A stretch of 33,324 bases of DNA, taken from Candidatus Hydrogenedentota bacterium. Its GTDB lineage: Bacteria > Hydrogenedentota > Hydrogenedentia > Hydrogenedentales > SLHB01. Every line of letters begins with the position of its first letter. The stretch's first letter is position 1. The stretch is taken from NCBI GenBank assembly GCA_029974275.1, contig JARKSN010000015.1, forward strand, positions 1 through 33,324, given 5' to 3'. The notes under the pieces are model-generated. The model ran no database searches. It had not been told where the DNA came from and saw only the letters and a list, made by a program, of their open reading frames with translations. This document shows positions 5,931 to 33,324 of the stretch, piece after piece. Position numbers and translations under genes: made by a program.

Positions 5931-6088
5931 CCAGTAACAGCGTATGCCGCGACTTCGCCGCTGCGGCGAACGCGATTCACGAAAAACGGCCTCTTGTTTT
6001 CCGGCTGGCCACTGCGCGGGAAGAAAAGCGCACAACCCATTGTATATCAGTAGGAAACGCCGGAAAAACGAAGCCGGAAAGAGGTGTA

Positions 6089-8059: not shown

Positions 8060-8158
8060 ATCCCAAAACGAAAAGGAGGGAGGGGCAGGGGGAATGTCTC
8101 CCGTGGTCTTCTTTTTTCTTAAACCGTAGACGCCGCCATTCTCTGCAGGAGTCCCGTC

Positions 8159-13492: not shown

Positions 13493-16400
13493 CTACGGCG
13501 CCGCGATGGCTCCGCATTGGCGCCCCATCCAGTAGGGCAAGAACACATCCAGGCTGGCGTATTCATACGCCGCATCGATTCCGTCTTTCAAGATGCCGGG
13601 AGAGCGCTGCCACTGATAGTCCGACAAGGGACGGTCGCGCACCAGCAAGGCGTACTGCGACAAATCGCCGTTGATGTGGGGGAAATACGCAGGATTCGCG
13701 CTTTGATCAACGTAGCGCATCCACTTTGGACCTTCCTGGAAGTCGAGCAGTCCGCCTTGCAGCGTTCCGCGGGCGACATTGTTCCATTTGTCATTCGCCG
13801 CGGCCATGTACATGGCTGAGAAGCCCGGCTGGAAGTGAGCGCTGGCCCCATACGCCCTGAACTTCGATGCGATCTGGGCCCGCCGCGAGGCATTCGGGTC
13901 GGTCTTGCTGATGACGTACATCGCCATGCAATCCAGGTTGTTGGAGAAATAATCCATTCCGTTGAGCGGCTTGATGTTCCAGCCGACCGCCATGGCATTT
14001 TGGAACATGGTTCCATAGTTCAACAACCCCGTGAACTTCGAGTCGTATTTGGCGTTATTGACGCCAAGACCTGCGCTCATCCACATGGTTTTGAAGCCAA
14101 AAGACACGGCATTGTAGGTGGTCTGGTTGCCCGGCGGCGGACATTTGATGTCGAAGCCATCGTCGATCAATCGATCGAGGACGCGCTCGATAATGAGTTG
14201 CGCGTGGTACCGCGCACCGGCATCGTTCACCAAAGCCCACACGCTGACCAGACCGAAACAGGTGCCGACATACGTGTCGCGCGAGCTGAAGCCCAGGTAA
14301 ATGCGATCCAGCCACGGCCATTCGCACTGGTAATACCCGTTTCCAGTGTAGTTCAGGTAATACGTCACATACGCCGGATCGTTGTAGGGGCCTGCAAACC
14401 GCGCGATGTACCCCTGCTTCTTGGTGCACAAGGTGAGCATATCGAACACATCCAACGTGGCGTTGATCTTGTTCAGCACGGACGGATCGCCCGTCACCGC
14501 GTACTTGTTGGCCAACGCCGCCAAATACACGCCGGTCCACGTCGCCGCGTCGCCCACGGTCTCATAACTTGTCGGATTCGATCGCGTGTAGTTGGAATAC
14601 AACACGTCCACGATCTGGCCATAGCGCAAGTTGTATTGCTCGCACAAGTTCATGAAATTCTGCGCCTTCTGATGCAGCGCGATGTTCTGGCCCGGCGTCG
14701 CCTCCTGCCACGGATACCCGAAGTTTCCGTGCGTTACCTGCACCATCCAATCGTTCTGGTAGTTCGACAACGCTTTATCGAGCTCGAAGGTCGCCGTGAC
14801 GCTCATGTCGCGCGTCAACGTGATCGAGACCGGATTTTCCATGCCCGTCGCATCGCCGGCCCATCCCGCGAATTTCCATCCCGTCGCAGGAACGGCCATG
14901 AGCAGCAGCATGTCGCCATCGTAATAGGGAGCCTGTGGATCGGCGTCAATCGCTCCCTGGCCCACGACGCTCGTCGTCAACGATCGCGGAATTTGCTCGA
15001 ACGTGGCGACGATGTGCGTCACGGCGGCCAACGTGACCGATTCGCTGGGATTAGCGCTGGTCAAAGCGCCTGACCATCCCACAAAGCGCCACCCCGCCTC
15101 AGGCGTCGCAACCAAGGTCGCCGTGTCGCCCACATAGTAGGGGCCGTCGGGCGGACTCAGAGTCACTGCGCCCATCCCCTCTTGGTCGACCACGAAATCG
15201 CTTTCCTGGCCGCCCAGGAACATGGCCGTCGCCGTCGTGTCGCCCACGAGCATGACGCTGACCGGGTTCGCGGCCCCGCTCAGATCATCCGACCATCCGC
15301 CAAACGTCCATCCCGAAGCGGGCGTCGCCAGGAAGGTCACCGTTTGGCCGGCGACATACGGGCCTGCAGGCGGATTCACGCTGATCGCGCCGTGCCCCAT
15401 CACGTTGGTCGACACGGTCACTTCGCCTGGGGCAAGGCCATTGCCCGATAGAGGCACCGCCAAGGCCGGCGCGTTGGTGGCGTTGGTGGGAATCGTCAGA
15501 ACCGCATTGCGGGGGCCCGTCGTGCGCGGATCAAAGACGATTTCGATGTAGACGCTGGCGCCGGGCTTGACGCCCGCCGTGGTGAAAGCCACCTTCGTAA
15601 TGACGAAATCAGCGGCCGCTGGCCCCGTAACGGTCAGCTTGCCCTTTAGCTTCAGCAGTGCGTCGCCGATGTTTTTGATTTGCAGCGTCATCGGGGCCGT
15701 CGGGCCGGAGTCGGGAAGCTGATACCCGAAATCGAGGGAGGTCACGGGCGCGTCAATGACCGGGCCCGAATATGCCACCACGTGAACCAGACGCGATACC
15801 GGCGCGGCGGCGTTGCCTGCCGAATCCGCCACGGCATACGTCACGGAATAATCGCCGGCAACTGCCGTGTCCACGGGGTTGACCGTCACGATTTTCGCGG
15901 TGAGATCGCCTTCCACCGCGTCCAAGGCCGTCGCGCCGGCGTCGACGTAGGTGCCGCCCTTGGCAACCGTGACTTCCGCGCTGCCCAGCAGCGTGATCTG
16001 CGGCGCGCCACCGTCCACCGTGATGGAGGCCGTTGTCGAGATAGACCAGTTGCCCGCAGCGTCCGCATATTGCCCAAACACGGTTTTCATGCCGTCGCCG
16101 GGCGTCAACGCCCATGCCGCGCTTGCCGCATACGGGAACACGACCCAGTTTGCGTTATCGTTGCTAAAGCGCATCAAGGACACGCCGGACGTGGCGTCTG
16201 TCGCGCTGGAGGTCAATGCGACGTTCATCGAACCGGTGTGCGTGGCGCCGCCGTTGATGACGAACGATCCCTTCGGAGGCTTGCGATCCAGCGTGATCGT
16301 GTCCGTGTACGCCGAGGACCAGTTGCCCGCGTTGTCGCCGTATTTCACGTACACCGTCTTGGGTCCGTCGCCCACGCTCAACGTCCACGACCTGGACTCG

Positions 16401-18472
16401 GCATACGCATACGTCGCCCAGTTGACGCCATTGTTGCTCAGGCGCACCTGGCTCAAGCCCGAGTTCTCGTCGGAAGCCGCCAGCGTCAAGGCGACGTTCT
16501 GCAAATTCGTGAAATCCGCTCCGCCGTTGATCTCGACGCTGCCGGTCGGCGGCGTCGTGTCGGGAATGGGCACATACACGCCCGCGCTGGTTGGAGAATA
16601 ACCGCTGCGGTTGCCGACATTGTCGTACGCGGCGACTCGGCAGTAATACGTGCGGCCCGGCGTTCCCACCACGGCCCAGTTCGGTTGATTGCCGATGTCT
16701 CCATTGGCGAGATAATGACTCTCGTCATCCCAGATTTGCACGTTGTAGCCAGCTAGCCCGCTGCCGATGATGTCGTCGGCCACTTCGTTCCACATGAAAC
16801 CGACGGCCGTTCCCGCGACATAGCCGTCGGGCTTGCCAGGTGCGGGCGGGGCGGCGGCATCGCACACGACGCCCACGCTGTTGTCGGTGAAATCGCTCAT
16901 GCGCCCCGCATGGTCAACCGCACGGACCTTGCAGAAATAGCTGTTCCCGTTGACGCCAGTGAAACTGTACGTGTTCGTCGTCGTCGTGCCGCTGACCCCG
17001 ATCGCAGGCCAATCCGGCCAATTGCGGATTTCGACCACGTAGTAGGCGACGCCGGAAAGGTCCCACGACGGAACCCACGCGAAGGTCACCGTCGCCGGCG
17101 CCCACACAGTGCCCGCCGTCGGCGTGCCCGGAGGCGCCGGATTCGTCAGGTCCACCGTGATGCCGCTGCTCCATGCAGTGGGCTCGCTCACGCGGCCCGC
17201 CTTGTCCTTGGCCATCATGCGGCAGTAATAGGTCTTGCCATCCGCGCATCCCGGAATGTTGTAGTAACCGGGTTGCGGTCCAATCCAGCCGTCCAGCTTA
17301 TCGGCCAGCCCCGGGGCAGTGCCCACCTGCATGTAATAGTCGGTAATGACGAGGTTGTCGTCGGTGGCGGTCCACGAGAAGGTGATGTTGTCGCTCGTCG
17401 AATACGGCGCGATGGGCTGCGGCGTTGTCATGGTGGGGGGGCCGAGATCAACCATGACGCCGTCGCTCGCGGATGACCAGTCGCTCATGCGGCCCACGTT
17501 GTCCACCGCCTTGACGCGGCAGTAGTACGTAACGCCCGATATCCCGTCCGGATAGGTGTAGAAATTGCCGGAGACGGTGCCCGTCGCCAAGACAGGATTG
17601 AAACTCGTGTTGGCGGCCACTTCGTAGACATACCCCGCGATGCCCGAGGAGGAATCAAAGCCCAGGAAAGAGAAATCCACCGTGCCGTCATCCCACAGCC
17701 CATTGTCGTACGGAGCCTGCACGGTTGGCGGATGAAGGTCCACCTTGATGCCGTTGGAGACCCCGGACCATGCGCTCGTGCGGCCAGCATTGTCCTGGGC
17801 ATACATCTGGCAATAATAGGTCACTCCGTCCGAGCATCCCGAAATGTCATAGTATCCAGGTTGCGCGCCAATCCAGCCGGCGAACTTGTCATTCCAGCCG
17901 GGTTGGGTGCCCACGATCATGTAATAGTCCTTGATGCCGCTCGTGCCGTCGCTGGCCGTCCAAAAAAAGCGAACCGTGCTGCCCGCCTTGTAAACGCCCT
18001 CGTCGGTGGGAGTGGAGATGGTGGGATTGTCGAGATCAAGATAGATGGTGTCGTAGGCGCTCCCGACCGTGTATCCGGCATCCAGAAATTGAATCTGGAA
18101 ACCATAGACGGCGCCACTCACCTGATACAGTTGTGGGTAGAGAGTGTACGAAACGCTTCCGCCCGCGGAAATATAGTTCCAGCCCGACCAATTCCCGTTG
18201 CCGTCGGTGACCTGGTACGCAATGATATTTTTATTGGCGGTGGCCGACACGGCGACAGGCTGCACCCGGTCGATGCCCCACGCAGCTCCGCCCGCGATGA
18301 CGCATGATGTGGAAGAAAATGCGGCATATGCCGGAAATGCCGCACCTCCCATAAACACGGCACATACGATTAATGCTGTCCAAAACGAGACGCTCCCTCG
18401 TGTCTCGGAATCGCCATAAGACTGTTTCTTACACAAGACAGAGCCCGCCCTTAATCCGTACCGCATGGTCAT
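13493..18472 (-). CDS. Giant secreted modular protein A (~1659 aa): signal peptide, 5 FN3-like repeats, Ig-like repeats, DUF5011-like Ig, choice-of-anchor D-like domain, 3 InlB-B-like repeats, C-terminal ~420-aa uncharacterised helical enzyme-like domain
   Basis: AAGGAG 6 nt before ATG 18472; signal ending AYA; repeats with YYCxVxAxDxAGxxS; GWxFxGWSG repeats; C-terminal domain homologous to the N-terminal domain of protein B. Confidence 0.85.
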   Translation of the reverse strand: MTMRYGLRAGSVLCKKQSYGDSETRGSVSFWTALIVCAVFMGGAAFPAYAAFSSTSCVIAGGAAWGIDRVQPVAVSATANKNIIAYQVTDGNGNWSGWNYISAGGSVSYTLYPQLYQVSGAVYGFQIQFLDAGYTVGSAYDTIYLDLDNPTISTPTDEGVYKAGSTVRFFWTASDGTSGIKDYYMIVGTQPGWNDKFAGWIGAQPGYYDISGCSDGVTYYCQMYAQDNAGRTSAWSGVSNGIKVDLHPPTVQAPYDNGLWDDGTVDFSFLGFDSSSGIAGYVYEVAANTSFNPVLATGTVSGNFYTYPDGISGVTYYCRVKAVDNVGRMSDWSSASDGVMVDLGPPTMTTPQPIAPYSTSDNITFSWTATDDNLVITDYYMQVGTAPGLADKLDGWIGPQPGYYNIPGCADGKTYYCRMMAKDKAGRVSEPTAWSSGITVDLTNPAPPGTPTAGTVWAPATVTFAWVPSWDLSGVAYYVVEIRNWPDWPAIGVSGTTTTNTYSFTGVNGNSYFCKVRAVDHAGRMSDFTDNSVGVVCDAAAPPAPGKPDGYVAGTAVGFMWNEVADDIIGSGLAGYNVQIWDDESHYLANGDIGNQPNWAVVGTPGRTYYCRVAAYDNVGNRSGYSPTSAGVYVPIPDTTPPTGSVEINGGADFTNLQNVALTLAASDENSGLSQVRLSNNGVNWATYAYAESRSWTLSVGDGPKTVYVKYGDNAGNWSSAYTDTITLDRKPPKGSFVINGGATHTGSMNVALTSSATDATSGVSLMRFSNDNANWVVFPYAASAAWALTPGDGMKTVFGQYADAAGNWSISTTASITVDGGAPQITLLGSAEVTVAKGGTYVDAGATALDAVEGDLTAKIVTVNPVDTAVAGDYSVTYAVADSAGNAAAPVSRLVHVVAYSGPVIDAPVTSLDFGYQLPDSGPTAPMTLQIKNIGDALLKLKGKLTVTGPAAADFVITKVAFTTAGVKPGASVYIEIVFDPRTTGPRNAVLTIPTNATNAPALAVPLSGNGLAPGEVTVSTNVMGHGAISVNPPAGPYVAGQTVTFLATPASGWTFGGWSDDLSGAANPVSVMLVGDTTATAMFLGGQESDFVVDQEGMGAVTLSPPDGPYYVGDTATLVATPEAGWRFVGWSGALTSANPSESVTLAAVTHIVATFEQIPRSLTTSVVGQGAIDADPQAPYYDGDMLLLMAVPATGWKFAGWAGDATGMENPVSITLTRDMSVTATFELDKALSNYQNDWMVQVTHGNFGYPWQEATPGQNIALHQKAQNFMNLCEQYNLRYGQIVDVLYSNYTRSNPTSYETVGDAATWTGVYLAALANKYAVTGDPSVLNKINATLDVFDMLTLCTKKQGYIARFAGPYNDPAYVTYYLNYTGNGYYQCEWPWLDRIYLGFSSRDTYVGTCFGLVSVWALVNDAGARYHAQLIIERVLDRLIDDGFDIKCPPPGNQTTYNAVSFGFKTMWMSAGLGVNNAKYDSKFTGLLNYGTMFQNAMAVGWNIKPLNGMDYFSNNLDCMAMYVISKTDPNASRRAQIASKFRAYGASAHFQPGFSAMYMAAANDKWNNVARGTLQGGLLDFQEGPKWMRYVDQSANPAYFPHINGDLSQYALLVRDRPLSDYQWQRSPGILKDGIDAAYEYASLDVFLPYWMGRQCGAIAAP

Positions 18473-18538
18473 GTGATGCTCCTTGATAGGTATGACAAAA
18501 CCCCTCACTTGCGCCAAAAGACAATATCACCTGTTCTA

Positions 18539-18567
18539 ACTATAGTGTAAGAATGGGATTCTGTCAA
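18539..18567 (-). promoter_or_regulatory. Sigma70-type promoter of giant protein A
   Basis: Minus strand TTGACA (18567-18562), 17-nt spacer, TATAGT (18544-18539). Confidence 0.75.
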
Positions 18568-18632
18568 GGAAAACGCTACGAAGATCGCTTTTGTAGTGAG
18601 TTTCGTAGAATCGGGGAGAAAATCGCGAAAAT

Positions 18633-19280
18633 CTACCGAACGGGGAGGACGTAGAGAAAAATGGCGATAAAATGGGCAGCGCTGCCGGCCATTACGAAGA
18701 CATGCCACACGGCGTGGTTGTAGGGCAAACGTTGGGCGGCGTAGAAAATTAGTCCCAAGGTGTAGGACAATCCCCCCACCAACAGCCAAAGAAAGCAACC
18801 GAAAGGAATTGCGGCAACCACCGGTTTGATCGCCACAAGAACACACCATCCCATCGCCACGTAAACGATAGTCGACAAAATGCCGAATCGGCCCGTGAAA
18901 AACAGCTTCAGCAAGATGCCCGTCGCCGCCAAGCCCCAAATCACTCCAAAAAGCCACCATCCCACTCCGCCTTGCAAACTGACCAGGGTGAAGGGGGTAT
19001 AGGTTCCGGCGATGAACAAAAATATGGCCGAGTGGTCCATGACGCGAAAAAAGCGTTTTAGCCGTGGGGCGCGGACTCCATGGTAGCACGTTGAAAAGAG
19101 ATACAGCGTTACGAGAGAGGCCCCATATACGCTAAAACTCACCACCCGAAGCGCGTCGCCCTGAATAGCGGCAAGCGTCACCAACACCGCCAGGCCGGCG
19201 ACGCCGAACGCCGCGCCCAGTCCATGGGTGATGCTATTGGCAATCTCTTCGCCTGTAGAATACGAAACAGTCCTAGGCAT
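18633..19280 (-). CDS. Hemolysin III family (PAQR/TrhA-like) membrane protein
   Basis: EEIANSITHG, STCYH, DHSAIFLFIAGTYTP, HAVWHVFV; ~7 TMs; start taken at ATG 19280. Confidence 0.92.
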   Translation of the reverse strand: MPRTVSYSTGEEIANSITHGLGAAFGVAGLAVLVTLAAIQGDALRVVSFSVYGASLVTLYLFSTCYHGVRAPRLKRFFRVMDHSAIFLFIAGTYTPFTLVSLQGGVGWWLFGVIWGLAATGILLKLFFTGRFGILSTIVYVAMGWCVLVAIKPVVAAIPFGCFLWLLVGGLSYTLGLIFYAAQRLPYNHAVWHVFVMAGSAAHFIAIFLYVLPVR

Positions 19281-19607
19281 GTGCGGTGACGGCGCGATCA
19301 TGGCTGCGCAAGGGTTCCCTGGGAGCGGGCGCGCCGCGTGCATGTGGCGCGGGGACGGCCTTTCACGATGAACATCATAAAAGACAGCATATCACAGTCG
19401 AGAAGAAAAAAGCTCGCTTTGAACGCAAAAAAAATGATATACGTATCGCTCCAGCCCCGGATGTTCACAGACGCATTGCCGGAGGCGGAAATAGCCGTTC
19501 CTGAAGGGGCGCCGCGCGAGAGAAGACCCTTCAGGCGAACATGCTGCCTGTGAGAATTCTCCCACGCCACACAAGCGCTTACGGCCAAACGAACGCAAGG
19601 AGGAGAT

Positions 19608-20539
19608 ATGCAGCCGATGCCCCAACACGAAATCCATCGCCGTTTTTTTATGATGTGCTTTTTGGCGGCATTTTTCCTGACCTTTGGGGCTCCGTCGGGC
19701 GCTGAAGCAGGCGTTCCGCGCATTCTGGTGGTGGGCGATAGCTGGGCCCAAGGCATCTTCGAGTTTGGCGCTTTCGACAAGGTGTTCGCCGCCCATGAAA
19801 TGGCGGGCGTCGAGGTGCGTGGGGCCACCACCGCGATTGGCGGATCGCGCGCCGACCAATGGGCGCGGAACCATAACCGCAAGACAGACAGCATCGGCAA
19901 GCTGGATTCCCTCAAACAGGCCCTCGAACAGGAGCCGACCCTTGACATCGTCCATCTCAGCATCGGCGGCAACGATTTTCTTCGCGCAACCATGGAGGAA
20001 GGCATCATCGAGATGACGCCAGCGCAGCGGGAGAAAGTATGGGAGCGCATCTGCAAGGACATTCGCGCCTTGGTGGATTTTATCCTGGCCCAACGTCCCG
20101 GCATCAAGGTGCTGGTGAACGATTACGACTACCTCGACCCTAACGTCATGCGGACCAAGCTCCGCATGCATATTCCCGAGAACATCACCCGTCGGAGTTG
20201 AACAAAGCCTTGTTGGAATTCGCCCGGTACAAGCAGAAGGCGCTGAGCGGCCTTGATCGCTGTGCATACATTCAGCATTTTGGCCTGCTGCAGTACTATT
20301 ATGGCAATCCACCCCGCGTTTCCCGCGGCCAAGGGCCGCTTCCGGGATTGCCTCCGCGCTACGAGCCTTTTGCTGGCGGAAATCCCGACTGCGCCAACTC
20401 GGAAGAGGCCATGCCGGACGGGGTTCACCCTATGCCGCAGGGGTATCAGCACATTATCGAACGGTGCTACCAGGCGGTCTACAAGGATTGGCTGGCGGCG
20501 GGAAAAACCGTTCAAGAGGCTGCAGCAGCGGCAAAATAA
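19608..20539 (+). pseudogene. Secreted SGNH/GDSL hydrolase split by a 1-nt frameshift (pseudogene or sequencing error)
   Basis: ORF1 has signal peptide, VGDSW and GGND blocks; ORF2 has the DGVHP block; adding one C at 20188-20190 gives ...ENITPSELNKALLEF... Confidence 0.8.
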
Positions 20540-20555
20540 CGGGGCGTGAAAGCGG

Positions 20556-21287
20556 TCAGTTCCCTTCCCGGGTCTTTTGACGGACGTGCCTGTTGATAGC
20601 GTCGAGTTCGGGATGCGCTTTCAAGAAATCCCAGACCTGCCTCCAGGATACGTAATCGTCGCCATCGAAGTGTGCATACACGGCTCGCACGAAAGCCAAA
20701 TCCTCTGCCGTATCGACGGTCCAACGGCCCTTGCTGCAATCGGCGTCATGCCGCACGCTCACATGCCGGAACCGGTTCGGGCGTTCCATGATATAGTCGG
20801 TGACGTGCTCGCGATCGAACGCATCCGAAGCTTCGGCATGCGCACACGCCAGTGCGTCGAAGGTGAACACTTCCGTATCAAGGCCGCGCGGATACGTGCG
20901 ATCAAGGATGTTCGCGGCGTAATCAGGGTGTTCGTTCAAGAAGGCTTCGACCGTTTTTCCGGTCACTTCCGGATCGATAAGGGGGCAATCGGAGGTGATG
21001 CGGACGATGGCTTCGGCGTTGTGCGCGACGGCGGCTCCGTAGTACCGGCCCAACACATCCATTTCGCTTCCGCGAAACACGCCTACGTCAAGCCGGGCGC
21101 ACTCCGCCACAAGGGGGTCGTCCAAAGCGGATGTTGTCGTCGCCACGACGATTTCGTCGATGAACGGAGCCTTTTGGGTCCTCCGGACCACGCGTTCGAG
21201 CATTGTCTGGCCGCTGACGTACATCAGGACTTTGTGAGGCAGCCGGGTGCTTCCCATCCGCGCCTGAATAATCGCCACTGTCCGCAT
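20556..21287 (-). CDS. SpsF-like cytidylyltransferase family protein
   Basis: IIQARMGSTRLP.KV, RGSE.DVLGRY, RITSDCPLIDP, REHVT, RWTVDT.ED; GAAGGAG RBS. Confidence 0.88.
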   Translation of the reverse strand: MRTVAIIQARMGSTRLPHKVLMYVSGQTMLERVVRRTQKAPFIDEIVVATTTSALDDPLVAECARLDVGVFRGSEMDVLGRYYGAAVAHNAEAIVRITSDCPLIDPEVTGKTVEAFLNEHPDYAANILDRTYPRGLDTEVFTFDALACAHAEASDAFDREHVTDYIMERPNRFRHVSVRHDADCSKGRWTVDTAEDLAFVRAVYAHFDGDDYVSWRQVWDFLKAHPELDAINRHVRQKTREGN

Positions 21288-21389
21288 GTGACTCCTTCAC
21301 GCGATGCGGTTTCCCTGGTTGCCGGATCGCCGAGGCGCCCATCATAATGCATCGTTGGGCGCAATGAAACCCTGGGGATTTCGCCTGCA

Positions 21390-22091: not shown

Positions 22092-22124
22092 AAGGGTTCT
22101 CCCATGATTGGTTTTGCACAAGCG

Positions 22125-24800
22125 TTACGGATCGAAACGCACTTCATCGATGGCTACGTCGATGCCCGCTGTTTCACACGGATCGAGTCGCAATGCGGTG
22201 ACGGTTCCGCGCCAGAGCGTCTTTTTCGACAAGTCTATGGTATAGCTGTGCGATTGACCGTCGTGTTCGAGAAAAAAACGGGCGCTGGTCGTTTCGGAAG
22301 GCGCCGCGCCATCTGTGCCCCAATACAACTGTCCCGAGGCGTGCGGGGGCAGCGTGCCGGTGAAACGCATCGTGATGGTGCATTGCGTCGCCTCGTTTGC
22401 CGGAAACGACACCGACGAAATCGTGAGGGCCGGGTCGGAAGAGATCGTGCGGAAGCGGAGAGCGCCATTCTCGTTGCGCATGTCCACGACGTTCATATGA
22501 GCGCTCCAACCCTCAAGGCCGCTGTCGAAAGTCCACCTTGGCGGTCCGGTCTGCGTGGGGAAATCGTAGGGCCCAAGACCCACGTCCGCCGGCGCAATGT
22601 TTGCCGGCCACAATGCCGGATCGCCCGTGCCGAAGACTTCGCGAATGCGATCGTACATCGCGAATCCGAATTCGGTGCATGGTTCGATGTAGCTGCCTTC
22701 GCCCCATTCGTTCAATGGACCGATCACGACCATTGGCGCATGCTCGGCGGCGCAAAACTCCTTTGCCTGTTGCAGCAATTGTTTGAACAATGCCGGGGTG
22801 CGCCCGGTGATGCGATACGCACGGCTGCCTTCCCACGGACGATTGTCCCAGCCGGTGTCGACGGTCGGGTAATACGTCAATCCACCGCGCGCCGCATTCT
22901 GTCTGGCCCATGCCGCCGTCGCCGATTGCACGACGGTGTCGTAGGAGAGCGGACTCAGGCTTCGGGCTTCCGCTTCGTCTCGGACGCTGCCCCACTCGTG
23001 GTAACGCGTGTAAGCGGAATAGCCTTCCCTGGCAAGGGTCGCGGCGATATCCGTCGATATTTCGTTCCCGATCGCGACATAGAGGATGCCCGGAAATCCT
23101 TTTGCCTGCGCGGCCTTTTGCGATTCCTCGAACACGGCGCGCACGGCGTTCGAACCGCCCAGATCGGAACGCACGTGCGCTGTGTCCCAGATAAACACGG
23201 CAGGTTTGCCGTCAATGCGGTAATATCCCGGCAGGGTGAAATAGTGTTCGAGCCAATGCTGTGTGACCTTGCGCCAATCCTCGGGCGAATGCTGCCCTGC
23301 GGGCCAGTGATTGGCCCACATGATCGCCACCTTGAGTTGGTCGCGATAGCGTGCGTTGCGGTAGGCGCCAAACCAATGCTCAAGCATTCGGTCGCCCTTG
23401 TTCCAGTACCAATCCACCAGAAAACCCGTGATGCCGTGCTCGACAGCCCACTTGATCTGCCAATCCACGACTTCCGCCTTGCCTTCGTCGTAATAGCCCA
23501 ACAAAGGACGCCGGATCGGCGCGACGTGGCGGATGGGGTCCCACTTCTCCGGCGTGTCCCAGCCGGGGAAGTAATACGCCATTACATCGAGAATTGGTCT
23601 GACCGGTTGCGGCGCCGGCACGTAGTCGGCTTTCGGAAGACCCAGTGCGGGCGTGATGGAGATCGTGGCCGTTTGCGCGGGCGGCGCATGGTGGCCGGCG
23701 ATTGCGGCCGTGATCGGGTGATCGCCCGGCGATGACGGAAACACTGTCCACGCGAGTGTTGTGCGTTCGCCGCCGGCCAGCGCCGACAGCGTTTGCACGG
23801 CGCCGGAACCCTCTGCGTATTTCCAGCCTTCCGGCAGTTGCAGCGCTGCAGAAAGCGCGTCCACGGTCGAGCCGCCGCGGTTCATCAACTGCAGCAGCAC
23901 GCGGCACATCGCGCCCGCACGGTTTAGGCCGCTTTCCGCGCCGAAGTATTCGACCGCGCATTCAGCGGGACCGCCGGGAACGTTGGCCAACGCGAGAGAC
24001 TCGATTGTGGCGCCCTCGGGCAGGCGAACGCCAACGACAGCCAACGTTCCTTTCCATTCGGGATGGGCGCCCGTCTCGATATTGTAGTAATGAGAGAGGC
24101 CGTCGCCGCGCAGCGAAAAATCCTCGTGCACCGTCCCGCGTGACTCATGCATGCCCCAGAAAATGCTCGCCGCGCCCTCGCGATCCGACTTGATGCGCGC
24201 GACGACCCAGCTTTTTCCCGCCGCGGGCAGTGATATGGGAATCGCTCGCGTTGTTGATTCCGGCACGATGCGCCACGCGGCGTCGCTGTCGAAGGTCCAC
24301 TCCGACGCCGCGCCATTGATCTTGCCGACATCGCCCCACGGCACGACGCGCAGCGAGTCGATGGCGAAATGCGCGTTGCCGTAGAGGTCCAACCGCAGCT
24401 TGCGGACAACGCCCTCCTGCTGCCAGAACGGAAAGATGACAATGTTCTCCCATTGTCCTGCGCCCTGGACCGAAAACCGCGTCGCTTTTCTCCAATCGAA
24501 ACCGCCGGACGGCCCGCTGTCGAGATCCGTCCAAAAGAGTTCGCCCACCCCCGGCTTGTCCGCGCGCAACCGCACGACGACGCATTGCCGCGCCGTCGCG
24601 TCAATCGATAGCCCCGCACATGTGAAGAACGGATCGCTCGCTATCGTATCGCATGCCAATGCCCCATGCTCCACCCGCACATTCACGATCTGCGCGTTCG
24701 GCGTCCAGGCATGCCGCGCCTCGTCCGATGCAAACGACCACGACGGCAATTCGGCATTGGCTTGCGCCAAGATCATGGCGATACACCCGAATAGATTCAT
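22125..24800 (-). CDS. Multidomain GH99-like/WbsX-family glycoside hydrolase with CBM-like modules
   Basis: AYYFPGW, PLLGYYDE, WQIKWAVEHGI.GF..DWYW, YYRIDGKP, GWDNRPW, NEWGEGSYIEP; repeated beta-sandwich modules on both sides. Confidence 0.8.
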   Translation of the reverse strand: MNLFGCIAMILAQANAELPSWSFASDEARHAWTPNAQIVNVRVEHGALACDTIASDPFFTCAGLSIDATARQCVVVRLRADKPGVGELFWTDLDSGPSGGFDWRKATRFSVQGAGQWENIVIFPFWQQEGVVRKLRLDLYGNAHFAIDSLRVVPWGDVGKINGAASEWTFDSDAAWRIVPESTTRAIPISLPAAGKSWVVARIKSDREGAASIFWGMHESRGTVHEDFSLRGDGLSHYYNIETGAHPEWKGTLAVVGVRLPEGATIESLALANVPGGPAECAVEYFGAESGLNRAGAMCRVLLQLMNRGGSTVDALSAALQLPEGWKYAEGSGAVQTLSALAGGERTTLAWTVFPSSPGDHPITAAIAGHHAPPAQTATISITPALGLPKADYVPAPQPVRPILDVMAYYFPGWDTPEKWDPIRHVAPIRRPLLGYYDEGKAEVVDWQIKWAVEHGITGFLVDWYWNKGDRMLEHWFGAYRNARYRDQLKVAIMWANHWPAGQHSPEDWRKVTQHWLEHYFTLPGYYRIDGKPAVFIWDTAHVRSDLGGSNAVRAVFEESQKAAQAKGFPGILYVAIGNEISTDIAATLAREGYSAYTRYHEWGSVRDEAEARSLSPLSYDTVVQSATAAWARQNAARGGLTYYPTVDTGWDNRPWEGSRAYRITGRTPALFKQLLQQAKEFCAAEHAPMVVIGPLNEWGEGSYIEPCTEFGFAMYDRIREVFGTGDPALWPANIAPADVGLGPYDFPTQTGPPRWTFDSGLEGWSAHMNVVDMRNENGALRFRTISSDPALTISSVSFPANEATQCTITMRFTGTLPPHASGQLYWGTDGAAPSETTSARFFLEHDGQSHSYTIDLSKKTLWRGTVTALRLDPCETAGIDVAIDEVRFDP

Positions 24801-24816
24801 CGCGCCGGTATCCTTC

Positions 24817-27417: not shown

Positions 27418-27494
27418 GTGCGTGCGTCTCCAAGTGCCGCAGTTTGCGCATGCGCTGCGACGCGGGACAGTCCCTGCCACTGGGAAAGCCCCTT

Positions 27495-27534
27495 AAATCA
27501 AAAGACCTGTGGGACGAGCAGTCCCACAGGTCTT
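27495..27534 (-). terminator. Riboswitch expression-platform terminator
   Basis: Perfect 14-bp stem AAGACCTGTGGGAC/GTCCCACAGGTCTT (27502-27515/27521-27534) with UUUUGAUUU tail on the minus strand; overlaps the aptamer 3' end. Confidence 0.85.
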
Positions 27535-27598
27535 CGAATCCTGCTGGTTGATGGTAGCAACCCCGGCTGCGCCACCCGTAGGGGCCGCCTGTTCCAGC
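27517..27598 (-). ncRNA. NiCo (czcD) transition-metal riboswitch aptamer
   Basis: Minus strand GCUGGAACAGGC-[P2 with cUACGg loop]-GCCGGG-[P3 GGUUG/CAACC]-AGCAGG-[P4]-CCUGUGGGAC follows the NiCo pattern (GAGCAGGC..GCCGGG..CAACAG..CUGUGGGAC); lies upstream of a cation transporter. Confidence 0.8.
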
Positions 27599-27601
27599 GA
27601 C

Positions 27602-27630
27602 ACTCTACCTTGCCATTGCTTGGCTGTCAA
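27602..27630 (-). promoter_or_regulatory. Sigma70 promoter driving the riboswitch-ATPase transcript
   Basis: TTGACA (27630-27625), 17-nt spacer, TAGAGT (27607-27602), directly before the aptamer. Confidence 0.8.
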
Positions 27631-27682
27631 GGGATCCGTGCCGTGTTTTTCCTGGCGCCATCGAGCGGCGCCCACCCCCCCC

Positions 27683-27714
27683 AAAAAAAGCCGCCCATAG
27701 GAATATGGGCGGCT
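27683..27714 (-). terminator. Intrinsic terminator of giant protein B
   Basis: AGCCGCCCATA/TATGGGCGGCT 11-bp stem with U-run on the minus strand. Confidence 0.85.
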
Positions 27715-27735
27715 GGGGGGATCCGCGATATGGCG

Positions 27736-30700
27736 TTATGCAGCGCGACGGCGTCGCACGGCGATCACGCCTGCAAGCAGCAGAATCGTTGCGAGCAGCG
27801 CCAACGCGGCAGGCGTCGCCATGGGAACGCCGAGCTGTCCCGCCCCATGTGGGGGATCGTCGGGATCGAGCGGGTTGGTTCCGAGCGCGACTTCGATGCC
27901 GTCGGAGATGTTGTCGCCATCGGTGTCCCAGTTCAGCCAATCGGTCTCATTCCCCGGGAACGGCCACCGCATGGGAAAAGCTGCGTCAACATGGCTCCAT
28001 ACGCCATCTCCATTCTCGTCCTCGACCAGATCGGGGATTCCATCGCCGTCGGCGTCTTCGGTGGGCAATGGGGCGTTTTCGGGGATGCCCGCCAGGAAGA
28101 ACACGCCCCACACGTCCGTGTTGGCGACGAGGGAGGTCTCCCCGCTCTTTTGCAAGGAGGCATTCAGCCACTGGAACTGCTGGGTGCGCCCGTCGATGCG
28201 GCCCATGCGTAACGTCGCCACCGGCACGCGCGTGCCATCGACGTATCCGTCGCTGTTGTCGTCCTTGAACCATATTTGAACAGGGCCGATGGAATTGCCG
28301 GTCACGAAGGTGGTTTCGGGCTTGACGCGATAGCAGGAGCCGTCGAGAATCTGGGCGTCTCCGGAAAGCTCGAAGCGCGGCTCGCGGTCCAACCCAATCG
28401 TCAAATTCGGCGTGCCTGTGATGCGACCGCCGATCACGGTGACTCGGATAAAATCACGGTATGCCGACGAGGTCGTATTGGTTGGGACGGTGAGGCTCGT
28501 CGGATTTTGGGTGATGTTCACCGTGCGCGTGATCGGGGCAGCGGCATTGCCGGCCGCATCCGTCACGGCGTATTCCACCAGATACGTGCCCGGCGTGTTC
28601 ACGTCGACCGGATTGGACGTTTCGATGCGCGATGTGATGACGCTGGTCGAATCCACATTGTCGGAAGCCGTGGCTCCAGCGTCGACGTAGGCGAGCGTCC
28701 ATTCCTGGGACACCGACGCAGGACCCCGGAGCGAGAGCGTCGGGGCAGTATTGTCGGCCGTCAATGCTACGGGGCTGGCGGCTGTTCCGGACACGTTCCC
28801 GACGTTGTCCTGGGCGGTGCCGGGAAGCACGGTGAGTTGGATCGTTCCATTTCCCGAAATGCTGGTCAGTGAAACGGTGCGCTGTGTGGCGCCTGTGCCC
28901 GACACCATCGCGGTGGCCATGGCATTGCCCGTAGCCACAAGCCCGATGCGCGACGCGTCGAGCGTCACCGTGTCTGCGCCATCGTAGGTGATGGTGTACG
29001 TCACGATGCCGTCCTCGTTCGCGATTGGAGGCTCCGGCGCCGACACGGTGATTGCCGGCGGCGTATTGTCCACCGTGAACGCCTCGCTGGGGCCAGCGGC
29101 AGGCGTCGGATTTCCTGCGCTGTCAAGGCCGCTCCCCACTGGAAGCGATATGCTCAACGCGCCATCCCCGGTGATGTTGGAGAGCGTCACCGTGCGGGTG
29201 GTGACGCCCGTTCCGCTGCCCGTGACCGCCACCGCCGCGTCGGCCGTTCCCGTCCGGTTCAGGATCACGTTGGCGGGGCTGAGGAGGACCGTCTCGACGC
29301 CGCCATACGAAACCACGTAGGAAACTGAGCCCTGCCGCGTCTTCATGACGGAAGGCGGCCCAATGCTCACGCTGGGCGGCGTATTGTCCACCAGCAACGG
29401 GGCGCTGGGCTCCGAGGGAGGCGCCGGAACGTCGAAGTAGTCAATTCCCATGCCTGACGGCAGTTGAATCCACAACATGCCCTCGCCGCTGATATTTGAG
29501 AGAGTGGCCGTGCGGAAGGAGTTCCCTGAACCCGACAGCGCCAGCGTGCCGGTTGCGGTTCCAGAGCGCCCGAGCACGACGTTGGATGTCGTCAAGGTAA
29601 GCGTCTTCATGCCGCTATAGTGGATGTCGTAGGTGACCGGGCCTGTGCTCGCAACGGAAGGCGACGGCGCGCCGATGTTCACGCCGGGCACCGAATTCAT
29701 CACTTGAAACGCGGCGGAAGGCGCGGGCGCGGGCGCAGCATGTCCAACCGCGTCGTGCGCCGTCGCGGCCAGGATATCGATGCTCAACGATCCGTCTCCC
29801 GTGATGTTTTCAACGGTGACGGTGCGCGTGGATGTCCCTGTTCCGCTGACGCTGACGACGCCGTCGGCGGTGCCCGTTCGTTCCAGCGTGATGTCGGAGG
29901 CGACAAGAGAAACGGTGTCTGCGCCCGTGTAGGTCACGGTGTATGTGACCGGTCCGATGCCTGTCTTGTCGACCGAGGGGGCGCTGATCGCGACGCCCGG
30001 AGGTGTGTTGTCGACGATGACCGTCGCACCTGTGGCCCCTTCAGCCGGCGCCGGATTGTCAAAAGGATCGCGTCCGGTCTCAGGCGGCGCCGAGATGAAG
30101 ACCGTCCCGTCGCCGGTTATGGAGGAAAGCGTGACCGTGAAGGAGCTCCCACTGCCGCTGAAGCCAAACGTTCCGGTGGCGGTTCCCGTCCAAGAAACCG
30201 TAACATCGCTGGCCGCGAGGGCGTCAGGCGTTCCCATGTTGGAATAGACGATCTCGTACGTCACGGGGCCTATCGATGTGGCCAGCGCGGACGGATCGTC
30301 GATGCTCACGCTCGGTTCTTGACTGCGCACGTTGAAGGAGGCGCTGGAACCTCCATTGGCGAGGTTGCCGGCGTTATCGCGCGCCGTGTCGGCGGCGATG
30401 GAGATGCTGAGCGATCCATCGCCGGTGATGCTGCTCACGGTGACGTTCCGGCTGGAACTTCCCGTTCCCGAGACGCTCACGACGCCGTCCACGCTTGCCG
30501 TTCCCAGGGGCGTCTTGATGAGGGTGATGTCTGTTGCGGCGAGCGTGACCACGTCGGCGCCGGCGTAGGTTACCGTATAGGTCACCGGCCCCGAAGCCGT
30601 GAGCGCGGTCGAGGGGGCGCTGATGGTCATGACGGGATTCGTGTTGTCGACGGTGAATGCCGTCACGGCGGACGCGGGAACTGCAGGCGCGGGAACGTCC

Positions 30701-33228
30701 CAATAGTCCGTCGCTGTTCCGGAAGGAAGCGAGACTTTCAGCGTGCCGTCCCCCGTCAAACTGGTTAGGCTGATGGTGCGGGTCGTGTTGCCCGATCCGG
30801 AGACGCTCACGGCAGCGCTCGCAGAGCCCGTTCGAGTCAATATTACGTCGGACGCCTGCAACCCTACGCTCGCCATGCCCGCATAAGAAACGGTATAGGT
30901 CACGGTTTGGCCCGATTTGGCGTAGCTGCTGGAAGGTTGCGAGATGCTCGTGCTGGGCGCGTTGTGTTGGACGTTGAATACGGCGCTGGGACCTGCGCCA
31001 TTGGCCAGGTTGCCGGCGGCGTCGACGGCGGTATTGGCCGCCAACGAAATGCCCAAACGGCCATCTCCCGTGATGCTGGAGAGCGTCACCGTGCGGGTTT
31101 GGCTGCCGGACCCGCTCACCGACACGGTCGCGCTGGCCGTAGCGGTTCGATTGAGGGAAACCTGAGCCGCTCCAAGCGTCACGGAGTCGGCGCCCGTGTA
31201 GGTGATGGTGTAGGTCACCGGTCCGTCCGACGTGCTGCCCGTGGAAGGCGCGCTGATGCTCACGACCGGCTTGGTGTTATCCACCGTGAACGTGGCGCTG
31301 GGACCTGCGGCCGGAGCCAGATTGCCGCCGCTGTCCGAAGCCGTTCCCGCGGCAATCGAGATGCCCAGCGCGCCGTCGCCGGTGAGACTCGACAACGTCA
31401 CGGTTCGCTCCGTTGTGCCCGATCCGCTGACAGAAATGGATCCGCTGGCCGTTCCTGTTCGGTTCAGGGTGATGTGGCTGGCGGCCAGCGTGATGGTGTT
31501 TACGTTGCCGTAGGTGACGGTATAGGAGATGGGCCCCGTGTTCGTGATGGAGGCGGAAGGACTGCCAATAGAGGCTGTCGCAAGGGCGGGAGCGGGAATC
31601 TTGCCCGACACACGGCCCATCCAGTACAGCGTGTACATGTCAAAACCCGGGAAACCGCGGCAGATATAATCCATTTCCCCGTTCGTCGCGAGCGCGGCGG
31701 ATCGCTGCCAGTTCCAATCGTTCATGGTGGTTTGGTGCGGCAGAACGGCATAGGTCGTGTATTGCGCGTTATAGTAATATGGGGCGAATCGCGGGTCTGC
31801 ATGCAAGTTGATGGGACGTCCCCATTTGACGGGGTCGGGCATGCACAACAAACCGCCAAGCAGTGTCGCATACGCGTCGATGGGGACCGATCCGTTATCA
31901 AACATGCAGGTGGCGGCCGCCAGGAAACCGTTCATGTCGAACCGCCGCGCCTCGTAGCGGCTTCTCCACGTGTTGTTAAACGAGACGAGCTTGCTAGGAT
32001 TGGTTTCCAGCAGCGTGATGCCGAGCCCACGCATCCAGTCTAAGTTGTTGATCCAGTAATCCCCGTTGCTCTCGTATAGGTTGTTGTTCGTCGACAAGGA
32101 CAGGTTGTAGGATGAGATCGTGCTCGCGAAGCTCGAATATTTCGTCGGGTTGGCCTTGTAGCCCACCCGCCGCTGCAATTGCTGCAGTTGGGTGTTGTTC
32201 GCAGTCGTGTGGCCCTTGCCGTCGAGGATATTCCAGCTGTCCGCGATGAGACGATCGATGATGATCTCGACAATGGCCTTGCAGTTCGCCAAGATGGTCG
32301 GATCCTGACAATACTGCAAGCAGGCCGCCAGACCGGTAAACAAACCGGTTTGCGTGTCGCGCGAAGGATAGCCCAGCCACGTATAATCCGTCCACGGAGC
32401 GGCGCCCGTGTAATGGCCGTTGCTGTAGCCGTTATAGTACCAATAATAGCCGGCATTATTGGTTGGACCCGAGAAACGCGCCGTGCGTCCGGCGGTGCCC
32501 GTGATCATGATGTTGCGGTAGATGCCGTCCAATACGCGATTCAGGTCGTCCTTCGTTTGTTGATCGTTGGGCATACAGGCATTTTTCATGGACAGCGCCA
32601 TCAAATGCATTCCCGTGAAACACATCGAATCGCCGATGAGATCCAGGGCGTCCAACGCGCCGGTTCGATTGAAATTGTTCCACCAACCCACGCCTTCCTG
32701 TCCCCAAAACTCGTTGTGATCGCGGTAATCGGTCAAATGGTTTTCCGCCTTCACGTACATCTGATTGATTTGGTCTTGCGTCAGGCCGTCCCAGCCGATC
32801 CAGGAACCGCGCAGGAACGACGTAAGCTGGTTCTCCTGGGTGGCGTTGGGGTGACATGTGCTGCCGAGCGGCAGAAAGGTCGCGTAGATCGTCGTGTCGG
32901 CGTTCAGGGTCAACTGCGTCGGGTTCTGCAAGGACGGCGTAAACTGCGGTGAGCTTGGTGAATACGACCAGTGACTGAAGACCCATCCGGCATCGGGGTC
33001 GCCCGGCATTGCCGGAGCGACGTCGGGCTTGCTCGTGAACTGCTGTCCATTCGAGGGACTGAACGAGATCGTCACCACCGTGCCAGCCGCATAGGGGGGC
33101 GACGGCGAAACCGAGTACCGGCCCTGACCGATAAGGTTGACGGTGAGTTGCACGTCTGCATAGGCGAGACCCAAAAACAGGCACCCGCAGAATGCCACTA
33201 CCAGTGCGCAAAAAAGCCTCTGATTCAT
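27736..33228 (-). CDS. Giant cell-surface protein B (~1830 aa): signal peptide, InlB-B-like repeat, ~420-aa uncharacterised enzyme-like domain, 9 Ig-like repeats, DUF5011-like Ig, Ca-binding DxDGDG motifs, C-terminal TM anchor/sorting signal
   Basis: GGGAGGTG RBS before ATG 33228; signal ending AYA; ~105-aa repeats with GPVTYTVTY..TGDG..D.AGN; DADGDGIPD and DTDGDNISDGIE; C-terminus VPMATPAALALLATILLLAGVIAVRRRRAA. Confidence 0.88.
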   Translation of the reverse strand: MNQRLFCALVVAFCGCLFLGLAYADVQLTVNLIGQGRYSVSPSPPYAAGTVVTISFSPSNGQQFTSKPDVAPAMPGDPDAGWVFSHWSYSPSSPQFTPSLQNPTQLTLNADTTIYATFLPLGSTCHPNATQENQLTSFLRGSWIGWDGLTQDQINQMYVKAENHLTDYRDHNEFWGQEGVGWWNNFNRTGALDALDLIGDSMCFTGMHLMALSMKNACMPNDQQTKDDLNRVLDGIYRNIMITGTAGRTARFSGPTNNAGYYWYYNGYSNGHYTGAAPWTDYTWLGYPSRDTQTGLFTGLAACLQYCQDPTILANCKAIVEIIIDRLIADSWNILDGKGHTTANNTQLQQLQRRVGYKANPTKYSSFASTISSYNLSLSTNNNLYESNGDYWINNLDWMRGLGITLLETNPSKLVSFNNTWRSRYEARRFDMNGFLAAATCMFDNGSVPIDAYATLLGGLLCMPDPVKWGRPINLHADPRFAPYYYNAQYTTYAVLPHQTTMNDWNWQRSAALATNGEMDYICRGFPGFDMYTLYWMGRVSGKIPAPALATASIGSPSASITNTGPISYTVTYGNVNTITLAASHITLNRTGTASGSISVSGSGTTERTVTLSSLTGDGALGISIAAGTASDSGGNLAPAAGPSATFTVDNTKPVVSISAPSTGSTSDGPVTYTITYTGADSVTLGAAQVSLNRTATASATVSVSGSGSQTRTVTLSSITGDGRLGISLAANTAVDAAGNLANGAGPSAVFNVQHNAPSTSISQPSSSYAKSGQTVTYTVSYAGMASVGLQASDVILTRTGSASAAVSVSGSGNTTRTISLTSLTGDGTLKVSLPSGTATDYWDVPAPAVPASAVTAFTVDNTNPVMTISAPSTALTASGPVTYTVTYAGADVVTLAATDITLIKTPLGTASVDGVVSVSGTGSSSRNVTVSSITGDGSLSISIAADTARDNAGNLANGGSSASFNVRSQEPSVSIDDPSALATSIGPVTYEIVYSNMGTPDALAASDVTVSWTGTATGTFGFSGSGSSFTVTLSSITGDGTVFISAPPETGRDPFDNPAPAEGATGATVIVDNTPPGVAISAPSVDKTGIGPVTYTVTYTGADTVSLVASDITLERTGTADGVVSVSGTGTSTRTVTVENITGDGSLSIDILAATAHDAVGHAAPAPAPSAAFQVMNSVPGVNIGAPSPSVASTGPVTYDIHYSGMKTLTLTTSNVVLGRSGTATGTLALSGSGNSFRTATLSNISGEGMLWIQLPSGMGIDYFDVPAPPSEPSAPLLVDNTPPSVSIGPPSVMKTRQGSVSYVVSYGGVETVLLSPANVILNRTGTADAAVAVTGSGTGVTTRTVTLSNITGDGALSISLPVGSGLDSAGNPTPAAGPSEAFTVDNTPPAITVSAPEPPIANEDGIVTYTITYDGADTVTLDASRIGLVATGNAMATAMVSGTGATQRTVSLTSISGNGTIQLTVLPGTAQDNVGNVSGTAASPVALTADNTAPTLSLRGPASVSQEWTLAYVDAGATASDNVDSTSVITSRIETSNPVDVNTPGTYLVEYAVTDAAGNAAAPITRTVNITQNPTSLTVPTNTTSSAYRDFIRVTVIGGRITGTPNLTIGLDREPRFELSGDAQILDGSCYRVKPETTFVTGNSIGPVQIWFKDDNSDGYVDGTRVPVATLRMGRIDGRTQQFQWLNASLQKSGETSLVANTDVWGVFFLAGIPENAPLPTEDADGDGIPDLVEDENGDGVWSHVDAAFPMRWPFPGNETDWLNWDTDGDNISDGIEVALGTNPLDPDDPPHGAGQLGVPMATPAALALLATILLLAGVIAVRRRRAA
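28745..31580 (-). repeat. Nine tandem ~105-aa Ig-like repeats within protein B
   Basis: Manual alignment of the translation; unit P.VSISAPS...GPVTY..Y.G...TL....TGTA...VSGSG..RTVTLS.ITGDG.L.I....TA.D..GN....F.V. Confidence 0.85.
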
Positions 33229-33324
33229 GAGACACCTCCCTACCATAGAGGCAGTCGGTTCGACAAAATGGCGATCCGAATGCATGTTCCTGTTCCCGTC
33301 CTGTCACGAAGGACGCGTGGCCTG

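Follow-up and report, generated by a model that had tools for sequence, protein, structure and literature searches.

Enzymes built on the six-hairpin (alpha/alpha)6 barrel bind their substrates at the face of the barrel that carries the long loops. Among the families that come closest to the domain described here, the cellulases of glycoside hydrolase (GH) family 9 use an Asp-Asp-Glu catalytic set, the enzymes of family GH127 a Cys nucleophile along with a Cys-rich zinc site, and the AGE/cellobiose 2-epimerases a pair of catalytic His residues. The catalytic residues of the GH76 alpha-1,6-mannanases are an adjacent pair of Asp residues, named D136/D137 in the title of the PDB entry 6shm (D136A, D137A). 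The stretch of DNA analysed in this work (the window; 33,324 nucleotides, contig JARKSN010000015.1 of assembly GCA_029974275.1, Candidatus Hydrogenedentota bacterium) contains two genes, A and B, encoding giant proteins that share a domain of the same predicted fold, located at the C-terminus of A and in the N-terminal part of B, for which glycan cleavage is considered the most likely function.

A comparison of the two deduced proteins by BLASTP yielded 150 identities over 535 aligned positions (28%) with an E-value of 2e-46, spanning residues 1180-1674 of A and 47-566 of B. The similarity of the two domains is real and far beyond chance. A previous interpretation of the window, referred to as the sequence-only reading, had aligned these domains by means of nine pairs of short motifs, all of which are located inside the BLASTP alignment, and the domain boundaries that it had proposed fall within a few codons of those listed below. 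It had also placed an InlB-type B-repeat directly before the domain in both proteins, in agreement with matches to PF18998 that exceed the gathering cut-off of 23.6 bits in each of them. The elements of the two genes that are relevant to the shared domain are the following:

13493..18517, minus strand: gene A, an open reading frame (ORF) of 1674 aa; the likely start codon is M16 at 18472, giving the 1659 aa of the public gene call
14768..15439, minus strand: three InlB-type B-repeats of A, directly before the barrel (PF18998, Flg_new_2; E-value 7.7e-36, 122.4 bits, three stretches)
13496..14785, minus strand: predicted (alpha/alpha)6 barrel domain of A, residues 1245-1674 (430 aa), reaching the stop codon
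27736..33285, minus strand: gene B, 1849 aa when read from its first ATG, or 1830 aa in the public gene call, which begins at M20
32869..33156, minus strand: B-repeat of B (PF18998; E-value 2.7e-9, 37.3 bits, two stretches), split by an insertion of about 25 aa
31588..32868, minus strand: predicted (alpha/alpha)6 barrel domain of B, residues 140-566

The B-repeat of B was missed when the whole protein was scanned against Pfam and was detected when the region was scanned alone. The exact 1659-aa product of gene A is already present in public records, in a cluster with members of 1659 aa and 1630 aa, and its full architecture was assembled independently on further contigs that are 100 kb and 168 kb long.

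The helical (alpha/alpha) toroid that had been proposed for the shared domain is borne out by structure prediction with AlphaFold2 and by fold searches. The model of the A domain, calculated from an alignment of 49 sequences, reached a mean predicted local distance difference test score (pLDDT) of 95.9 and a predicted TM-score (pTM) of 0.95, and consists of 12 main helices with the long loops gathered on one face. A second model, comprising the B-repeat and the barrel domain of B and calculated from a separate alignment of 23 sequences, gave a pLDDT of 87.8 and a pTM of 0.91; it starts with beta strands in residues 1-95, interrupted by a low-confidence loop at 36-46, and continues with a helical pattern like that of A. 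All Foldseek matches with E-values of up to 1e-3 belong to six-hairpin proteins (GH9, GH76 and squalene-hopene cyclase), with TM-scores from 0.38 to 0.53. In an exhaustive VIA search, GH76 enzymes were on top for both models, with Z values of 17.0, 16.9, 16.5 and 16.1 for A (top row: root mean square deviation 4.4 over 309 aligned residues, 7% identity) and of 16.0 and 15.8 for B (4.0 over 292 residues, 9% identity). The next fold families trail GH76 by one to three Z units, and the rows below it include GH126, MmpH, cellobiose 2-epimerases, GH9, GH8, GH88/105, GH144-type glucanases and a PL27 lyase, down to a Z of about 12. These predictions support the view that the shared module is an independently folding six-hairpin (alpha/alpha)6 barrel of about 425 aa.

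The conservation of Asp, Arg and Trp residues that had been noticed in the two domains holds throughout the family, as deduced from an alignment of 112 full-length domains. In the numbering of domain A, to which 1244 is added to obtain the residue of protein A, the conserved acidic positions are D79 (96%), D170 (98%), D413 (97%), E/D296 (96%) and D188 (88%), and the conserved basic positions are R129 (95%), R169 (89%), R385 (88%; Thr in B) and R422 (95%). N/Q319 is conserved to 98% and W392 to 93%, and further conserved aromatic or amide residues are W83, W163, W211, Y279, N283, F390, Q393, Y418 and W419. A helix map of the A model places D79, R169-D170, Y279/N283, H317/N319 and D413 at the N-termini of helices 2, 4, 8, 10 and 12. 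The long loops of that face contain R129, W163, R385 and W392-Q393. The short turns of the opposite face of the model contain D188 and E296, which are probably structural. Since the face that carries the other conserved residues is the one at which six-hairpin enzymes bind their substrates, the helix topology makes a single conserved pocket likely, with the following candidate residues selected by conservation:

Protein A, candidate pocket: D1323, R1373, R1413-D1414, Y1523, H1561, Q1563, R1629, W1636-Q1637 and D1657
Protein B, residues retained: D219, R270, R309-D310, Y410, N452, W526-Q527 and D549

Among the 112 sequences, no column contained Cys in at least 30% of the rows, and no two neighbouring columns were acidic in at least 60% of them.

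The sequence-only reading had been unable to assign the domain to a characterised family, and this assessment stands, as none of the sequence families in Pfam, NCBIfam or the PDB extends over it. When the isolated domains were searched against Pfam at E-values of up to 10, nothing was found for B and only PF07944 (the GH127 catalytic domain) for A; this match scored 13 bits against a cut-off of 24.9 (E-value 0.052) and extends over 48 residues, from 82 to 129 of the domain. Likewise, no Pfam family was located on the barrel domain in any of 85 relatives, no NCBIfam model on the barrel domain of A or B, and sequence searches of the PDB with the single domains returned only chance-level rows. 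A profile of the family detected one PDB entry, the GH146 structure 5opj, with an E-value of 0.0037 over 56 columns that correspond to the second and third barrel helices. The public names of the relatives are 'hypothetical protein', the B-repeat family TIGR02543 or TIGR03437, and the ESM Atlas contributed only clusters of hypothetical proteins with scores of 0.84-0.85, which have the status of leads. A full-text literature search found no paper on the barrel domain, a result that does not show the family to be unpublished. General predictions of carbohydrate functions and sulfatases have been published for two metagenome-assembled genomes (PMC10866078), and the passages of that paper that were consulted contain nothing on the barrel family.

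The sequence-only reading had regarded A and B as a pair of paralogs, which proved to be wrong. The domain occurs at eight sites in the genome, with seven full-length copies and one fragment of 185 aa. At the level of the domain, A shares 62% and 42% identity with two copies on contig C261 (C261a and C261b) and 40% with that on C200, B shares 78% and 68% with the copies on C284 and C197, and A and B share 28%. By these identities, A and B represent two old subfamilies, each with closer paralogs. A B-repeat directly precedes the barrel in six of the seven full-length copies, and the insertion of about 25 aa in the B-repeat of B is also present in the paralogs on C284 and C197. The copy on C200 is a stand-alone secreted protein of about 460 aa, and C261b additionally contains a region resembling SGNH/GDSL esterases, its closest representative (P0007) likewise matching GDSL. 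The ORFs C261:1-1731 and C284:5163-6944 are cut off by the ends of their contigs, both within the identical sequence of a B-repeat, so that the copy number and the architectures are lower bounds. The paralog pairs showed ratios of non-synonymous to synonymous substitution rates (dN/dS) of 0.13-0.17, indicating purifying selection, although the values are rough with dS above 1. The 185-aa frame (C329:3690-4244, plus strand, locus L008) comprises only the C-terminal third of a B-type barrel (E-value 2.7e-4 to A) and is likely a gene remnant, as judged from its sequence.

Beyond this genome, a HMMER scan of 1.84 billion cluster representatives detected 627 proteins with E-values of up to 1e-3, 237 of up to 1e-10 and 49 of up to 1e-30. 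The assignment of the present genome to the Hydrogenedentota as the most likely phylum is in line with its MurC, FtsZ and GlnA, which share 76%, 70% and 78% identity with their counterparts on contigs of named Hydrogenedentota metagenome-assembled genomes. Matches of up to 1e-10 were found in 111 of 121 sampled Hydrogenedentota genomes (81 of the 86 of high quality), a single genome having as many as 13, and members of the family are also present in metagenome-assembled genomes labelled Verrucomicrobiota, Pedosphaera and Nitrospiraceae. The domain stands alone in 61 of the 106 representatives that contain it in full, is C-terminal in 23, N-terminal in 17 and in the middle in five; a hydrophobic N-terminus was recognised in 80 of the 99 representatives that start with M. 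Fusion partners identified by Pfam in the 85 relatives are GDSL/SGNH esterase (three proteins), dockerin (two) and CARDB (two), as well as laminin-G, a weak GH5 match, metallophosphoesterase and isochorismatase; the esterase, dockerin, CARDB, GH5 and laminin-G fusions are of a kind commonly seen in carbohydrate-active enzymes. The barrel family is large, exported, widespread, typical of the phylum and of a known fold class. In one relative's genome (locus L025, G011:C76) two members are arranged in tandem (5974-7356 and 7396-8847, minus strand), adjoined by a GT2 glycosyltransferase and a MarR regulator.

The earlier suggestion of a shuffled 'B-repeat + enzyme' cassette was examined on a FastTree phylogeny of the 112 domains (midpoint root), with a domain counted as linked when a simple B-repeat motif was present within 150 residues upstream of it. 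The 20 rows so labelled all fall into a single clade of 31 rows (local support 98), in which B belongs to a subclade of 13 rows that are all linked (support 100). The label requires five changes on the tree against a mean of 18.8 after shuffling, a degree of clustering that is inflated by near-copies. The tree supports inheritance of B-repeat and barrel as a unit, in agreement with the cassette idea. Most members of the family are stand-alone secreted proteins.

The barrels of A and B are combined with different additional modules, as follows:

18323..18472, minus strand: predicted signal peptide of A, residues 16-65, with a hydrophobic core followed by AYA
15440..18322, minus strand: stalk of A, with FN3-like modules, two OmpL47-type barrels, a Bact_surface_Ig-like domain and choice-of-anchor D
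33157..33285, minus strand: predicted signal peptide of B, residues 1-43, ending in AYA
28756..31587, minus strand: stalk of B, nine repeats of about 104 aa, residues 567-1510
28513..28731, minus strand: Bact_surface_Ig-like (DUF5011-type) domain of B (PF16403, E-value 1.2e-12)
27739..27927, minus strand: TSP3 repeat and C-terminal tag of B (PF18884, 25.6 bits), with GVP, a hydrophobic span and RRRR

The two stalks are of different construction, and B alone has a C-terminal hydrophobic segment with RRRR behind it, both in line with the sequence-only reading. The stalk of A matched Pfam fn3 with an E-value of 3.9e-9 and PF16403 with 1.5e-17, and among the NCBIfam models NF012200 (47.3 bits, cut-off 45) and NF047446. 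The stalk repeats of B, with starts at residues 668, 772, 879, 986, 1091, 1195, 1299 and 1405, matched no Pfam family at gathering level. The DUF5011-type Ig domain is common to A and B (45% identity) and forms a second BLASTP segment separate from the barrel (E-value 1e-15). Repeats of the B stalk type (B residues 567-760) recur in giant proteins across many phyla (45-69% identity), including Verrucomicrobia, Planctomycetota (Fimbriiglobus), Bdellovibrio, Desulfuromonadales and Armatimonadota, often together with S8 protease or beta-helix heads.

The C-terminal module of B, about 70 aa in length, also terminates giant ORFs on the contigs C135 (at least 2258 aa), C88 (at least 2474 aa) and C89 (2470 aa) of the same genome, and a similar tail occurs on C310. 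These giant ORFs (C135:1-6774, plus strand; C88:1-7422, plus strand; C89:11305-18714, minus strand) also share the stalk repeats of B, with a DNA identity to B of about 68% for C135 and C89. The common module is a conserved stretch containing the TSP3 repeat, GVP, the hydrophobic span and a cluster of Arg residues, and it may act as an undescribed sorting tag. In A, which has only a predicted signal peptide, the cassette is positioned at the C-terminal tip of an FN3/Ig stalk; in B it sits at the N-terminal tip of the nine-repeat stalk, apparently fused as a head onto a shared chassis of stalk and tag, and this display chassis would hold the enzyme away from the cell. It is plausible from the termini of the two proteins that A is released and B is cell-bound.

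Regarding the function of the barrel, its export, the conserved set of Asp, Arg and aromatic residues, the fusion partners and the sugar-related neighbours of its relatives lead us to a glycan-active domain of a new six-hairpin family, most likely a glycan-cleaving enzyme that acts as a glycoside hydrolase or, less likely, as a lyase. We assign a probability of roughly 0.55 to this explanation as a whole, including the barrel fold, glycan cleavage, paralogy, the cassette and display on stalks. The pocket would be located on the long-loop face of the barrel, where the near-invariant residues D1323, D1414 and D1657 of A, each at the start of an inner helix, would act as acid/base or as nucleophile, and where R1373, R1413 and R1629 together with a ring of Trp, Tyr and Phe residues would hold the sugar. 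The number of conserved Arg residues hints at an anionic substrate. Gene neighbourhoods were inspected, as plain counts, at three loci and then through 68 neighbour proteins from 17 of 20 further loci, the remaining three being repeats of loci already covered. The neighbours of the relatives are often sugar-related, comprising sulfatases, ThuA, GFO/IDH/MocA, a GH5/39-like protein, amylase and glycosyltransferases. A ThuA-family gene is located directly beside stand-alone members in L027, L033 and L036, the latter two from one genus; GFO/IDH/MocA oxidoreductases adjoin family members in L009 and L026; and sulfatases, GFO/IDH/MocA and BlaR1-type proteins were each detected in two to three loci.

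Several observations weigh against this explanation. The domain has no characterised relative at the sequence level, and its catalysis is predicted only. The matches in fold are remote (7-10% identity), and since the Z values slide smoothly from 17 to about 12 over hydrolases, lyases, epimerases and terpene cyclases, the fold selects no reaction. The catalytic signatures of the nearest families, namely the adjacent acidic pair of GH76 and the Cys of GH127/146, are absent, and an hhalign comparison with the only GH76 protein found in the phylum gave a probability of 1.1%, which argues against membership in GH76. Positions 52 and 317 are His in 71% of the family and are Asn and His in A and Asn and Asp in B, so that by sequence A and B may differ from the majority of the family at these positions. 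No conserved operon was found in the 3 + 17 loci, the neighbours varying from locus to locus. With respect to B, none of the matches in 53 family relatives bridges the junction between enzyme and stalk, which was observed only on this contig; moreover, other public versions of B comprise 976 and 854 aa, begin mid-repeat at B residue 874 (98% identity) and look truncated in comparison. Either the fusion in B is peculiar to this species or the assembly is wrong at this point.

The second possibility would make the architecture of B an assembly chimera and leave only C-terminal barrels in this genome. Besides the lack of bridging relatives and the public versions that begin inside the stalk, it could draw on one DNA run with loose ends at 30990 and 31734 and on the contigs C261 and C284, whose breaks inside identical B-repeats indicate that repeats disturb the assembly. 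However, nowhere else in the assembly is a sequence at least 95% identical to any part of gene B, and as the paralogs are 68-76% identical in DNA, there is no repeat at the junction to cause a false join. Furthermore, all 30 bins are covered in three DNA runs that stem from different studies, the reading frame continues without a stop, and the barrel is N-terminal to further domains in 17 of the 106 members, with P0034 and P0060 in B's own clade. A chimera is thus considered improbable. Among the matches listed for the DNA runs against the window, no contig bridges position 31588; a joint from 15886 to 30632 was discarded, one side being 21 and too short to trust. A junction search in the protein database returned 626 stalk-repeat proteins covering about 57-67% of the query and was uninformative on the junction. 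Two other alternatives concern the barrel itself. As a non-catalytic binding head, similar to a lectin or adhesin, it would attach to a polymer or to the surface of another cell, with the stalks serving attachment only. This would suit A and B as giant adhesin-style proteins with Ig/FN3 stalks and B-repeats in which no known catalytic signature is kept, B having replaced R385 and the majority His317 and both having replaced the majority His52. Nevertheless, the conservation of three acidic positions at helix N-termini to 96-98%, together with Arg, Asn and Gln residues, exceeds the usual demand of binding, the 61 small secreted proteins that consist of the domain alone have no stalk, and hydrolytic domains (GDSL, metallophosphoesterase) are among the fusion partners, so that a mere binding function appears unlikely. 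An enzyme that does not cleave glycans, either an epimerase or isomerase of the AGE/cellobiose 2-epimerase type or a protein resembling terpenoid or lipid cyclases, would be in keeping with the fold matches to cellobiose 2-epimerases (Z 14.6 and 13.8), drimenyl diphosphate synthase (Z 14.6) and squalene-hopene cyclases (Z 13.1-13.5; Foldseek E-value 3.8e-4) and with the two positions that are predominantly His. These His residues are, however, lost in A (N52) and B (N52, D317), a DxDD-like run of acidic columns is absent, and the GH76 rows outscore all of these matches for both models. Export and fusion to dockerin, CARDB or B-repeats would moreover be unsuited to small cytoplasmic sugars or isoprenoids, and we regard such an enzyme as quite unlikely.

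Returning to glycan cleavage, a more far-reaching version can be proposed tentatively, at somewhat short of even odds. The barrel would then found a new GH or polysaccharide lyase (PL) family, whose pocket of Asp-Asp-Asp/Arg type would differ from the GH76 pocket, and would represent an expanded signature tool of the Hydrogenedentota for cleaving glycans or envelopes, deployed in three formats: as a free secreted protein, linked to a B-repeat at the tip of a giant stalk and, in this species only, as an exchangeable head on a chassis of stalk and GVP tag. The Hydrogenedentota are uncultured, and their diet is inferred only from annotated genes. Since the family is unnamed, exported and present, often in many copies, in 111 of the 121 genomes searched, annotation-based surveys of carbohydrate-active enzymes would miss it entirely. 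If glycan cleavage applies, the barrel would provide a new enzyme family and direct access to the question of which substrates the phylum lives on. The chassis of stalk and tag would exemplify, in nature, the swapping of heads on a cell-surface display scaffold; a binding module would add one more adhesin domain. Accordingly, the family is a promising subject for enzyme discovery and does not represent a new category of system.

DNA nearly identical to gene B was detected at at least half of the sampled words in eight runs, which derive from wastewater, activated-sludge and anaerobic-digester metagenomes. One metatranscriptomic library contained six contigs of at least 99% identity, four on A and two on the barrel of B, and none on the genes in between. 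These RNA contigs are a weak hint of transcription of both genes, with carry-over of DNA as a possible source.

The surroundings of genes A and B in the window are of housekeeping character and encode an LpxA-type acyltransferase, FtsH, FolP, a GlmM-type mutase, a KdsB-like cytidylyltransferase, a pseudouridine synthase and a P-type ATPase. Two further ORFs were noted. An 891-aa protein (22125-24800, minus strand), encoded between the genes for the pseudouridine synthase and the P-type ATPase and immediately downstream of the operon side of gene B, combines a WbsX-type/GH99-like domain (PF14307, E-value 1.6e-29; PF16317, E-value 6.3e-7) with an NPCBM-associated domain and is another possible glycan-active exported protein. 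A 534-aa ORF (4168-5772, minus strand) between the hexapeptide transferase and ftsH had no Pfam match at E-values of up to 1.

Compared with described sorting signals, the C-terminus of B resembles the PEP-CTERM/exosortase, IPTL-CTERM and MYXO-CTERM tags in that a short motif is followed by a hydrophobic span and then by a basic cluster. It differs from them in that its motif is GVP and is preceded by a conserved module containing TSP3, and the tail scored below the cut-off of every CTERM model, with IPTL-CTERM as the best (16.2 against 20.5) and PEP-CTERM (TIGR02595/PF07589) at 13.4 against 16. The genome itself encodes an exosortase on C280 (PF09721, 208.4 bits) and contains six canonical VPEP tails.

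Among the described enzymes, the GH127/GH146 beta-L-arabinofuranosidases (PF07944; 5opj, 6yqh) belong to the same fold class and provided the only hints at the sequence level. Membership in these families was rejected, as PF07944 remained far below its cut-off, the match spans a single helical hairpin and a Cys column is absent. The GH9 cellulases with an N-terminal Ig-like domain (CelD, 1clc/4cj0; CbhA, 1rq5), which were among the best Foldseek matches (E-values of 2.3e-4 to 1.6e-3), show an arrangement similar to that found here, with a beta-sandwich directly before an (alpha/alpha)6 barrel. The beta domain in the present proteins is, however, an InlB-type B-repeat and not CelD_N, sequence similarity to GH9 is absent, and the Asp-Asp-Glu set of these cellulases is not mappable onto the barrel family; the pTM of the two-domain model of B is by itself no proof of the packing of its domains.

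The best structural matches of both models were the GH76 alpha-1,6-mannanases (BT2949, 4v1r; BT3792, 4c1s; 6u4z; CtGH76, 9r4k), with the GH76 structural neighbours MmpH (7qsj) and Lin0763 (3k7x) also near. A 747-760-aa ORF of the same genome (C222:23430-23921, plus strand, L018) gave a GH76 match of 24.4 bits against a cut-off of 25.9 and ends in a hydrophobic and basic tail after a DP-rich stretch. As to membership of the barrel family in GH76, PF03663 was not listed for either domain even at E-values of up to 10, and the adjacent Asp pair does not occur in the 112-sequence alignment. Canonical GH76 was found in one of 101 Hydrogenedentota genomes, against the 111 of 121 that contain the barrel family. 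What GH76 and the barrel family have in common is the (alpha/alpha)6 barrel, export from the cell and, as predicted for the latter, Asp chemistry at the N-termini of the inner helices.

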